From: a virus
Lineage: Duplodnaviria > Caudoviricetes
Direction: 5' to 3' (one strand)
Virus record (IMG/VR): IMGVR_UViG_3300025389_000011
DNA: 64,000 nt
Shown one piece after another: positions 39,328 through 47,869 of this stretch; within the stretch, counting starts at the first letter, position 1; the number at the start of each line of letters is the position of its first letter. A model generated the notes under the pieces. It made no database searches and was not told the origin of the DNA. It worked only from the letters and a program-made list of their open reading frames with translations. The translations under genes were made by a program, and so were the position numbers.

Positions 39328-39563
39328 GTATTTCAACATCCGACCTAACGCTGGCAACAGAGGAAGTTCGGGACTTGTGGCAAGTGCGAGTGGGAGAAAT
39401 TTACTTTGTTATTTGTCTGAAATTTACTTTGTTATTTCGTTAAACCACCGTGATATAACAAGCAACACAAACAGAATCAGGTAACACTTGCACTATTGGT
39501 TCGGGTTGTGGCAAAGATTAATGTTAGGATAGAACAGAATCCCGGCTACGGGGTGTTGAATAT
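39328..39563 (+). ncRNA. rnpB: Minimal RNase P RNA (catalytic domain retained, specificity domain replaced)
   Basis: CR-I GAGGAAGTTCGGGAC (39360-74) pairs with CR-V ACAGAATCCCGGCTA (39534-48) to form P4 with a bulged U. P1, P2, P3, P5, P6, P7, P15 and P16 all pair. J5/15 CAA, AGATTAA (CR-IV-like) and L15 GGT are present. Confidence 0.9.
39396..39437 (+). repeat. 19-nt direct repeat GAAATTTACTTTGTTATTT x2 inside the RNase P RNA
   Basis: Identical copies at 39396-39414 and 39419-39437. Confidence 0.95.
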
Positions 39564-41917: not shown

Positions 41918-42478
41918 ATGTCTGTGTTAACTTTAGATATATCTGGTATACCAAGACAATGGATTTCAAATGATGAAGCTATTACATATCACGCAAAAAA
42001 TGCGGTGGCTTGGGCACTAGGAGAAGTAATTGCAAAATATCGTGGTGGAACACAACGTGACGGTCAAACAAGTTATTTAGAAACAACAAGTATTATTGCT
42101 GTTAAAGGACACGGATTTAATCCATACAAACATGCAAATGTTGCACTAAGTAACAAAACATTATTTGGTCGGGATAGGTACGTGTGTGCATATTGCGGGG
42201 GACACTTCCCGAATTATCATCACCTTAGCAGGGACCATATTGTCCCTAAATTTTTGGGTGGTGAAAACACATGGATGAATGTTGTTACTGCATGTAAAGA
42301 ATGTAACAGCAAAAAAAGCCATAAAACATTGAAACAAGCACGTATGGAATTACTATATGTGCCATATGTTCCAAATCACTACGAAAACATGATTCTACAA
42401 AACCGCACAATACTTGCGGATCAAATGGAGTACCTATTAGCAGGTGTTCCAAAACACAGTAGAATTCTCCTAAATTAG
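41918..42478 (+). CDS. HNH endonuclease (McrA-like)
   Basis: LFGRDRYVCAYCG, SRDHIVP...GG..W.NVVTACKECNSKK. Confidence 0.9.
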   Translation: MSVLTLDISGIPRQWISNDEAITYHAKNAVAWALGEVIAKYRGGTQRDGQTSYLETTSIIAVKGHGFNPYKHANVALSNKTLFGRDRYVCAYCGGHFPNYHHLSRDHIVPKFLGGENTWMNVVTACKECNSKKSHKTLKQARMELLYVPYVPNHYENMILQNRTILADQMEYLLAGVPKHSRILLN

Positions 42479-43151: not shown

Positions 43152-43228
43152 CCGGCGGTAGCTCAATTGGATAGAGCATCGGTCTTCTACACCGAGGGTT
43201 GGGGGTTCGAATCCCTCCCGCCGGGCCA
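43152..43228 (+). tRNA. tRNA-Arg(TCT)
   Basis: Cloverleaf, CCA. Confidence 0.93.
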
Positions 43229-43231
43229 CTA

Positions 43232-43403
43232 TGTTGTAAAAATACAACATCTAAGTATTTGACAAATAATCAGTTTAGTTATACAATACTTACATGAGTT
43301 GAGAAATTGATTCAGATTAATTGGTAAAAGATTGTTGTAGAAATACAAAAAATCATTTGACAATAAATCAAGGTAGTGATACAATCATTACATGAGTTGA
43401 GAA
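43232..43403 (+). promoter_or_regulatory. Two tandem sigma70 promoters, each with an upstream TGTTGTA-N4-TACAACA-type palindrome
   Basis: TTGACA 43259 / TACAAT 43282 and TTGACA 43357 / TACAAT 43380; both followed by ATGAGTTGAGAA. Confidence 0.85.
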
Positions 43404-43467
43404 GTTATCAAACTTTTTAACGTGTTCTTTAAAAAATTAAGTTTCATATATCATCTTGAATTCAAGG

Positions 43468-43704
43468 TGTTATATGTAAGTATGGTAAAGGTTACCTATA
43501 CCGTTAGGGGCTTTGTGCGGGAAGATGTATCGACGGATACACCCAATAGTCAGAGTTTATGAAGCGTATGAACGATAGTTTAGGCTATGCAGTTGAACGT
43601 GACGGAAGAATATAGGCAGTAATGACCGTGCAGGCTTACGTGGAGACGTTCCCGTAAGTAGAGATAGATGCACAATGGTTCCTTTAGTTTACTTACATAT
43701 AACA
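43468..43704 (+). ncRNA. Unassigned structured RNA closed by a perfect 15-bp terminal stem
   Basis: TGTTATATGTAAGTA/TACTTACATATAACA with nested TAAAGG/CCTTTA, TTGTGC/GCACAA and CGGGAA/TTCCCG. Confidence 0.65.
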
Positions 43705-43710
43705 GTTTAT

Positions 43711-43844
43711 GCTCAGATAGTTCCACGCAAAGTTCGCAACTTTGGTCCACGGTGAGTTCGCAACTCATGGCAGTTGGAGAGGTAAACACCCCCGCTACAG
43801 GGGGTCTCCAGTGAAAGAAGGTGCAAATCCTTCATAGAGCGCCA
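43711..43844 (+). ncRNA. tRNA-like structured RNA ending in a T-arm and GCCA
   Basis: GAAGG-TGCAAAT-CCTTC T-arm, 3' AGAGC-G-CCA pairing with 5' GCTC, twin GTTCGCAAC hairpins. Confidence 0.6.
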
Positions 43845-43895
43845 TTTAAGGCAGTTTCAGATAGTGACCTGAAATCGTAAGTCCAATCTAACAAT

Positions 43896-43971
43896 GCTCG
43901 GTTCGTCTAGAGGCCTAGGACAACGCCCTTTCACGGCGTGAACAGGGATTCGAATTCCCTACCGAGTACCA
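43896..43971 (+). tRNA. tRNA-Glu(TTC)
   Basis: Cloverleaf, CCA. Confidence 0.95.
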
Positions 43972-46775: not shown

Positions 46776-47045
46776 ATGCAAGTAAGAGCAAGTCATATTT
46801 TAGTGCCAACCCTGGCAGAGGCAGTAAACTTAAAAGAACAAGTCAGTAAAGGTGCAGATTTTGCACAATTGGCAAAACAACACAGCAAGTGCCCTAGCGG
46901 CCAAAATGGTGGAGATTTAGGACCTTTTGGTCGTGGCATGATGGTTAAGCCATTTGAAGATGTAGCATTTGGTAGTGATGTGGGTGTAACCAGTGGTCCA
47001 GTGCAGACACAATTTGGTTATCATTTAATTAAAAGAACAGCGTAA
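46776..47045 (+). CDS. ppiC: Parvulin-type peptidyl-prolyl isomerase
   Basis: ASHILV, FAQLAKQHSKCPSG..GGDLG.F.RG.MVKPFE, VQTQFGYHLI. Confidence 0.95.
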   Translation: MQVRASHILVPTLAEAVNLKEQVSKGADFAQLAKQHSKCPSGQNGGDLGPFGRGMMVKPFEDVAFGSDVGVTSGPVQTQFGYHLIKRTA

Positions 47046-47587: not shown

Positions 47588-47869
47588 ATGTCATCAATAT
47601 CATCTAGATATACGAGCGAAAAGGCAGTAGACAAAGTAGGTAATAGATTTGATTTAGTTCTTATTGCATCGTTAAGGGCAAGAGAATTAACAATGGGTCA
47701 TCCAACTAAATTAACTGATCCTGGATTTAATCCTAATGAAATGCCTAAACCAATGACAATTGCAATACGAGAAATTGAAGAAGGTTTAGTAGGTAGAGAA
47801 TACTTAGATGTTTATAAAGACAGCGAAAGTCAACGTAAGAAAAATAATATACGTTATACTGAAATATAA
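47588..47869 (+). CDS. rpoZ: RNA polymerase omega subunit homolog
   Basis: NRFDLVLIASLRAREL...KPMTIAIREIEEGLV matches the omega signature. Confidence 0.85.
   Translation: MSSISSRYTSEKAVDKVGNRFDLVLIASLRARELTMGHPTKLTDPGFNPNEMPKPMTIAIREIEEGLVGREYLDVYKDSESQRKKNNIRYTEI

Follow-up and report, generated by a model that had tools for sequence, protein, structure and literature searches.

The 64,000-nucleotide (nt) stretch of DNA analyzed here, referred to below as the window, belongs to a virus of the Caudoviricetes (Duplodnaviria; IMG/VR record IMGVR_UViG_3300025389_000011) and contains at positions 43711-43844 of its plus strand a tRNA-like RNA gene, hereafter TL. Our analysis confirms TL as a real, conserved and structured RNA gene situated within an array of 30 tRNA genes. 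An earlier note on this DNA had proposed a tRNA mimic at this site, and the predicted structure is indeed kept in relatives, with a positive result for covariation among homologues. Judging from sequence comparisons, we tentatively favor the interpretation that TL is a non-decoding pseudo-tRNA, i.e. a stable small RNA that would offer one or more alanine-type anticodon loops to a reader, and that it is best placed among the tRNA-like stable RNAs of phages as an apparently unannotated family.

Phage tRNA look-alikes have been known since the T4 RNA C and RNA D. The TL family is a sharply defined case of this phenomenon, with a core that goes down to 68 nt and a single copy in each phage genome searched whole. 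It stands out by the presence of an invariant alanine-type loop, duplicated in some lineages, on a body predicted to be incompatible with alanyl-tRNA synthetase (AlaRS), and this loop could provide a concrete handle on what phage pseudo-tRNAs do. TL is further tied to two more unannotated conserved RNAs of one transcription unit, namely a structured RNA just upstream (R237) and a 3' trailer, as well as to a phage-encoded miniature RNase P RNA.

Structure and conservation of the TL family

Three motif scans, anchored respectively on the twin hairpin apex, on the hairpin together with GGCAGT and on CCACG together with the hairpin, recovered 26 distinct variants of TL from approximately 70 viral or metagenome loci (IMG/VR and JGI metagenome contigs, after removal of chance matches in coding DNA); homologous and related loci are designated below by L-numbers. 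A pattern anchored on hairpin 1 recovered the variants L262 and L265-267, of which L262:1299-1420 (+) is a close relative of the window version, with a near-identical R237 and a third hairpin unlike that of the window, and ends in CCT instead of CCA. Since the first patterns themselves contained the loop, a fixed-gap pattern with the loop unspecified and the flanking strands fixed was also run, and of its 27 matching loci 9 were true members, all with UUCGCAA, the rest being chance matches. A loose gapped pattern produced mostly chance matches, and model R1 gave no new member among the loci scored. Among 185,579 prokaryotes, represented by one genome per species, there were 25 pattern matches, none of which scored as TL by model R1, and on present evidence the family is therefore viral. 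Full-length searches of three viral contigs, of 354 kb (98% complete), 150 kb (100% complete, with direct terminal repeats) and 96 kb (60% complete), found TL exactly once in each, and a search with filters off found no second copy in the RNA island of the window.

The family falls into three size classes, namely a form of 68-69 nt, which is the commonest, a form of 120 nt, and one of 128-134 nt to which the window version belongs. The 68-69-nt form begins with a 5-bp acceptor helix followed by an 11-nt single strand ending in an invariant CCACG; its center is a single 5-bp hairpin with the 7-nt loop UUCGCAA followed by the invariant strand GGCAGUGA; and its 3' side comprises a T-arm (5-bp stem, 7-nt loop), then a single unpaired base, the acceptor strand, the discriminator and CCA. 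In both larger classes the unit formed by CCACG and the hairpin is tandemly duplicated, and an extra hairpin is inserted between GGCAGU and GUGA, the position of the variable arm. The 134-nt form thus appears to be an expansion of the 68-nt single-hairpin core, and can be read as a five-armed cloverleaf in which the "D-arm" is a second anticodon-type arm.

The long-form model R2 recovers exactly the ends 43711 and 43844 for the 134-nt window version (156.3 bits). It is preceded by the leader GTTTAT (43705-43710), with U at -1 and A at -2, and a TTTAT-type leader stands before G+1 in nearly all homologues. The 5' strand of the acceptor (43711-43717) forms four Watson-Crick pairs (43711-43714) and three non-canonical layers (A.A, G.U and A.A) with its partner at 43834-43840, as compared to 5-6 base pairs in relatives and the 7-bp helix of canonical tRNAs; acceptor positions 2 and 3 co-vary (CG/UA and UA/CG/UG in the long forms). 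The 3' strand (ATAGAGC), the discriminator G, a residue shared by most variants, and the encoded CCA occupy 43834-43844. The T-arm (43817-43833), GAAGG-TGCAAAT-CCTTC, has a 5-bp stem in which two to three pairs co-vary and the 7-nt loop UGCAAAU; T-loops elsewhere in the family are UGAAACU, UGAGACU, UUAAAUU and UGGGAUU, with the first U and the fifth A kept throughout. As read from the parsed sequences, the stack of acceptor and T-arm amounts to 11-12 layers, as against 12 in tRNA.

Hairpin 1 (43728-43744), at the position of the D-arm, has a 5-bp stem and the loop UUCGCAA; two of its stem pairs have changed on both sides, and in the long-form alignment the loop and its two closing pairs are invariant. 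Hairpin 2 (43752-43768), at the position of the anticodon arm, has the same dimensions and loop, and three of its pairs co-vary. Between the two lies CAC (43748-43750), which would pair with GUG (43811-43813) in a weakly supported 3-bp junction helix. This helix is invariant in the 14 short forms, shows a change from C-G to U-G with the pair kept in 5 of the 12 long forms, and could close the anticodon-side limb. Hairpin 3 (43775-43810), at the position of the variable arm, consists of a 6-bp outer helix, an 8-nt A-rich internal loop and a 5-bp inner helix. It is not found in the 68-nt forms, and is the least constrained part of the molecule because at least three unrelated sequences occur there among the long forms, with a pairing of 87-90%.

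The elements listed in the earlier note, namely GCTC paired with GAGC and followed by G-CCA (43711-43714 and 43837-43844), the T-arm and the three hairpins, all lie where it had located them, and its claim of co-varying hairpin stems with fixed loops is borne out in both the short- and long-form alignments. Its twin hairpins of identical apex and differing stems are likewise present, but for each of them a 5-bp stem with a 7-nt loop is a better description than a 7-bp stem with a CGC triloop. The two hairpins do occupy the region where the D and anticodon arms were said to have been replaced, but the D-arm is simply absent and the hairpins are apparent copies of the anticodon arm. The proposed TGGAGA/TCTCCA multiloop does not hold; the element is one hairpin, interrupted by an asymmetric internal loop of 8 nt, and the two helices invoked have one T in common.

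As a single sequence TL folds with a minimum free energy of -43.6 kcal/mol (z = -2.19), and 7 of 200 shuffled sequences are as good. Such single-sequence thermodynamics is weak support alone, and it is the comparative evidence that is decisive. In the short-form model alignment (n = 15, of which 14 are short forms and the remaining one is long) pairing holds in 98.9% of the cells, slid controls giving 31-56%. Both partners have changed in 9 of the 18 pairs, a level reached by 1 of 500 shuffles; three co-varying pairs are found in each of the acceptor, the hairpin and the T-arm. In the long-form alignment (n = 12) the corresponding values are 96.7% of cells paired versus 31-52%, with changes of both partners in 11 of the 31 pairs, which none of 500 shuffles reach, and with co-varying pairs in both twin hairpins, the acceptor and the T-arm. 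Fitting of these alignments to the model biases them toward the structure; nevertheless, the helices are secure in view of the slid controls and the range of pair types observed. Model R2 also assigns significant but weak scores to true tRNAs (tRNA-Met at L003:5341-5415 (+), 26.5 bits; tRNA-Thr of T4, L261, 17.6 bits), which points independently to a tRNA-like frame of acceptor and T-arm.

The invariant loop and relationships to known RNAs

The sequence UUCGCAA is the same in all hairpins of this type but one, and the two pairs that close it are also constant outside L265-267 and L262, while the stems drift. In L265-267 the loop-closing G-C pair is changed to A-U with UUCGCAA untouched, and the sole variant loop, GUAGCAC in hairpin 2 of L262, contains the anticodon-like AGC and again has G35, C36 and A37. 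This loop is built like an anticodon loop, with U33, A37 and the alanine anticodon CGC, and the arm as a whole displays the co-varying 5-bp stem, 7-nt loop, U33 and purine 37 of an anticodon arm. The phage's own tRNA-Ala(UGC), with the loop UUUGCAA, differs from it at position 34 alone, and is the closest of the 30 window tRNAs, with matches to TL at 8 of 11 positions around the loop. UUUGCAA also occurs in the tRNA-Ala of 6 of 7 related phages, and under the short-form TL model the best-scoring true tRNA in the island is again tRNA-Ala. The body of TL is different in that position 3:70 is U-A or C-G, not the G3:U70 that is the established major determinant for AlaRS. G3:U70 and A73 are present in all eight real phage tRNA-Ala genes checked, and TL lacks these features as well as the D-arm and GTTCGA-type T-loop seen in tRNA-Ala(UGC) of the same phages. 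In the absence of G3:U70, charging of TL by AlaRS is not expected, despite its alanine anticodon loop.

We rejected a classification of TL as a canonical tRNA. Its D-arm slot is occupied by an 11-nt single strand in the short form and by the second anticodon-type hairpin in the window, and it lacks the TPsiC sequence, whereas the window's true tRNAs have GTTC in the T-loop in 29 of 30 cases, the exception being a tRNA-Met with GTGC. The Rfam tRNA model RF00005 (family threshold 29 bits) gives no match over TL even at E = 10, nor over its counterparts in 11 related loci at the gathering score. ARAGORN in its standard, relaxed (-ps80) and intron modes calls none of 24 TL variants. More generally, Rfam scans of the window (at gathering scores and at E = 10) and of the 11 related loci returned only tRNAs at other positions and left TL and R237 without a match; up to E = 10 the interval 43711-43844 is matched by no family of any kind, Rfam tRNA mimics such as the bacterial Y-RNA-like YrlA included. 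A viral candidate RNA catalogue of 10,006 entries (PMC10690425) mentions tRNA-like candidates, among them DNAVirus_1850, which is described there as occurring 27 times and as coinciding in one instance with a predicted tRNA-Asp. TL, which is absent from Rfam, may have been listed earlier, conceivably as this entry.

The tRNA-like domain of transfer-messenger RNA (tmRNA) shares with TL a topology of acceptor, stemless D-loop analogue, helix at the place of the anticodon arm, T-arm and NCCA. The identification of TL as a tmRNA or two-piece tmRNA was rejected, in agreement with the earlier note: at only 68-134 nt it lacks G3:U70, an mRNA-like domain and a conserved tag frame, neither ARAGORN nor Rfam matches it to tmRNA, and both acceptor strands lie in TL itself. 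ARAGORN finds no tmRNA in the window, and the lone Rfam tmRNA match in 43200-43920 is a 17-nt T-arm fragment of another tRNA.

The nearest described analogue of TL is the T4 RNA C. We know of no phage tRNA look-alike with an assigned function. RNA C (species 1, rnaC, 139 nt) and RNA D (species 2, rnaD, 119 nt) are, like TL, specified by small RNA genes in a phage tRNA cluster, and rnaC, which stands at the end of that of T4, similarly combines an acceptor-like helix and a T-arm, the minihelix also seen in TL, with long hairpins that replace the D and anticodon arms. In contrast to TL, with its non-canonical T-loop, encoded CCA and retained or duplicated anticodon-type arm, rnaC has a canonical GGTTCGAATCC T-arm and no encoded CCA. 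Homology was rejected, since with filters off R2 gives the rnaC region 6.3 bits (E = 0.67) and rnaD no more than 2.4-2.7 bits (E above 7), and true T4 tRNAs outscore both regions. The two T4 RNAs are still described as "of yet unknown functions" (PMC9697503).

Putative transcription unit and competing interpretations

Two sigma-70-like promoters (TTGACA-17-TACAAT, with 11-of-12 matches) at 43259-43385 (+) head a unit composed of R237, TL and tRNAs, and the consensus TTGACA-17-TATAAT is found at the matching place in L010, at the start of its R237-TL unit. Between these promoters and R237 there is one weak terminator-like hairpin (43452-43469), and a scan of the window detected no terminator-like site among R237, TL and tRNA-Glu/Tyr/Asp. 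R237 itself (43468-43704, +) is a structured RNA of no Rfam family, ranging from 216 to 237 nt in length (other examples being L094:749-981, L006:9832-10047 and L096:7370-7586). Of its 47 predicted pairs 17 co-vary. A 12-bp terminal stem, which closes the molecule, co-varies completely between lineages, and its invariant core strings include AAAGGUUACCUA, GUAAUGACCGU and GUAGAGAUAGAU...CAAUGGUUCCUUUAG. A T-box-like or RNase-P-like nature of R237, judged by eye, was dropped without Rfam support.

The 3' trailer of TL (43845-43891, +), which occurs once in the window, consists of TTTAAGGCA, a co-varying hairpin with the loop ATAGTGAC, and CGTAAGTCCAATCTAA. Across 27 loci it is represented by 14 distinct versions, whose consensus is UUUAAGGCA, a 7-bp co-varying hairpin with a loop of the NNAGUGAC or GAAA/UUAAG type, and GUAAGKCCAAUCUAA; next comes a tRNA, a TTGACA promoter-like box, or a ribosome-binding site with an open reading frame (ORF). 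On the other side, a tRNA ends a few bases 5' of TL in most loci, with a conserved (A)GUUUAU spacer between the two, and most of the 23 loci scanned with ARAGORN have tRNA-Asp(GUC), or Asp then Glu, before TL. In the remaining loci TL comes directly after R237. The leader, G+1 and encoded NCCA of TL resemble those of the 30 window tRNAs, whose A/U-rich leaders nearly all end in U. Because of this match, shared processing by RNase P is plausible, with TL being cut like its tRNA neighbors.

Under the interpretation of TL as a non-decoding pseudo-tRNA, the sigma-70-type promoters would give rise to one unit of R237, TL and the downstream tRNAs, from which TL would be excised by the tRNA machinery, with RNase P cutting at G+1 and 3' trimming proceeding to the encoded G-CCA. 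The existence of a miniature RNase P RNA 4 kb upstream, together with the lack of a terminator inside the R237-TL-tRNA stretch, is consistent with such processing. The product would fold into a tRNA-like L, in which the stack of acceptor and T-arm forms one limb, and one or two copies of the anticodon arm closed by the short junction helix form the other. The working part would be the invariant UUCGCAA, an alanine-type anticodon loop with C34. Since AlaRS is not expected to recognize TL, the RNA would remain uncharged and, by imitating the anticodon arm of tRNA-Ala, would occupy or recruit a loop-reading factor, for which a protein or the ribosomal decoding site are the candidates. A more elaborate version, which we regard as distinctly improbable, would have uncharged TL enter decoding sites at GCG codons and either arrest or adjust translation in the host or interfere with how uncharged tRNA is sensed (RelA pathway), with the twin arms perhaps spanning adjacent codons and R237 joining TL in a two-RNA module for host takeover.

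Several observations weigh against the action of TL as a mimic read through its loop. No conserved neighboring protein fit to be a loop reader is encoded within 5 kb on either side, and we know of no enzyme or defense system specific to the tRNA-Ala anticodon loop. CCA is encoded in only 24 of the 26 variants, the exceptions being L019 (CCC) and L262 (CCT). The anchoring of the search patterns on family motifs would have allowed very divergent loops to escape, and the invariance of the loop might equally serve RNA-RNA pairing.

The alternative that fares best, although we consider it unlikely, is that TL is processing punctuation, in which the tRNA-like fold merely recruits RNase P and the 3'-end enzymes so as to define the 3' end of R237 and the 5' end of the trailer or tRNA, TL itself being a by-product. 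This is favored by the arrangement of the unit: TL begins 6 nt after R237 in the window, R237 lies upstream on the same strand, directly or a few hundred bases off, in 22 of 38 non-redundant loci (where checked, the intervening DNA holds tRNA-Asp or Asp-Glu), and the conserved trailer follows in 27 loci. Moreover, L010 and L011 keep R237, TL and trailer without any tRNA gene in the retrieved sequence, which extends more than 2.8 kb to one side and 1.3 kb to the other. Precedents that work in this manner are mascRNA behind MALAT1 and the plant mitochondrial t-elements (PMC1920247); placed directly 3' of a longer non-coding RNA, such a tRNA-like fold could allow RNase P to set the 3' end of the longer RNA. 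These systems are eukaryotic or organellar, however, and an invariant anticodon-type loop is unexpected for a bare processing signal. The acceptor and T-arm suffice for cleavage, leaving unexplained the invariant 7-nt loop, the constancy of the two pairs closing it, the conservation of the junction strands CCACG and GGCAGUGA and the duplication of the hairpin; furthermore, in approximately 37 of 64 loci TL directly follows a tRNA, which is already a source of processing sites, and it does so more often than it follows R237.

A further possibility, which appears improbable, is that TL is a kissing-loop antisense regulator whose loop pairs with UUGCGAA in phage or host RNA, the two hairpins providing two contacts. 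The invariance of the loop on freely varying stems would suit such a role, as would the UUCG at its start, which fits the YUNR U-turn motif of fast-pairing antisense RNAs, and one trailer type has UGCGAA in its hairpin loop (L010, L011, L014, L026 and L044). The complement is, however, absent from the other trailer types, and the sense strand shows no excess of it within 5 kb on either side of TL (11 found, 11.5 expected). When three phage contigs were searched whole, including two genomes that are 98-100% complete, exact 11-nt complements were confined to the antisense strand of TL itself, and one-mismatch matches stand at the control level once TL's own exact matches are set aside. A target in the host would remain conceivable.

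That TL is an aberrant decoding tRNA, lacking a D-arm and reading GCG, charged with alanine or with another amino acid for deliberate mistranslation, we judge highly improbable. D-arm-less tRNAs are known from mitochondria, such as metazoan tRNA-Ser(AGN) and nematode mitochondrial tRNAs, where they are charged decoders with dedicated factors, whereas TL occurs in a bacterial virus. They share with TL the acceptor, a loop in place of the D-arm, the 5-bp/7-nt anticodon arm, a short variable region and the T-arm, and ARAGORN in mitochondrial mode (-mt) draws L017 and L082 in this manner. In all, this mode returned 5 calls of "D-loop mtRNA-Ala(cgc)" in 4 of 24 variants (L003 twice, L017, L056 and L082), with the commonest 68-nt forms and the window form uncalled, which suggests only a geometry compatible with a D-arm-less tRNA and no more. 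The correct geometry of the anticodon arm (U33, A37) and the encoded CCA are also in keeping with decoding. On the other side of the balance, TL lacks an identity pair for its anticodon, a TPsiC loop and a D-loop partner, it draws neither an Rfam tRNA match nor a standard ARAGORN call, and half of its forms carry two anticodon arms, in the long forms along with a large extra arm. Of the alanine codons in the phage ORFs GCG is the rarest (8% of them, 6.6 per 1000 codons), and the phage tRNA-Ala(UGC) can read it by wobble. The presence of two anticodon arms in one molecule and the rarity of GCG in the phage thus argue against a decoder. Also against a decoder is the statement in the abstract of PMC11551756 that bacterial tRNAs known so far are all cloverleaf.

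Finally, a decaying, functionless tRNA pseudogene, of a kind that phage tRNA arrays do contain and that the loss of the CCA end in two variants might recall, is barely credible in light of the covariation, as every helix is kept by compensatory changes across 26 variants, TL has remained single-copy in each whole contig searched (genomes of 150-354 kb), and it is retained in loci without tRNA genes.

Genomic surroundings

The window derives from a large, uncultured phage of low GC content (about 31-44%) that carries genes for ribonucleotide reductase and head proteins; the nearest records in the phage collection searched have nothing in common with the window beyond tRNA genes. The 30 tRNA genes predicted by ARAGORN form an island at 38.7-47.6 kb, all on the plus strand, within which TL lies in a gap of 668 nt that is without a convincing ORF and is flanked by tRNA-Arg(tct) and tRNA-Glu. 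The flanks of TL are mosaics of small ORFs.

The ORFs of the island with a Pfam family code for an HNH endonuclease, a parvulin and an RNA polymerase omega-like protein. The HNH endonuclease ORF (Pfam HNH_5, E = 1.3e-16; 41918-42478, +) interrupts the tRNA array in the same way as the homing endonuclease segB lies inside the T4 tRNA cluster. A parvulin-type peptidyl-prolyl isomerase (Rotamase, E = 2.6e-22; 46776-47045, +) is encoded within the tRNA gene region, and an RNA polymerase omega/Rpb6-like protein (E = 4.3e-14; 47588-47869, +) at its end. The miniature RNase P RNA (39332-39560, +) is located between tRNA-Leu(caa) and tRNA-Ile(tat); it aligns end-to-end with the RNaseP_arch model at 35.4 bits (E = 7.6e-9), a score that does not reach the gathering score of 84, and most of its specificity domain is missing.

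One further locus, L008, with a TL-like T-loop and a GCCA end, was rejected as a member of the TL family and is an ordinary tRNA-Arg(tct), which has the same non-canonical T-loop, UGCAAAU, that TL uses. L008 comes from a 193-kb viral contig of an unrelated large phage, and at L008:1608-2015 (+) ARAGORN predicts a tmRNA with an unusually long tag of 30 residues ending in ENVLV.

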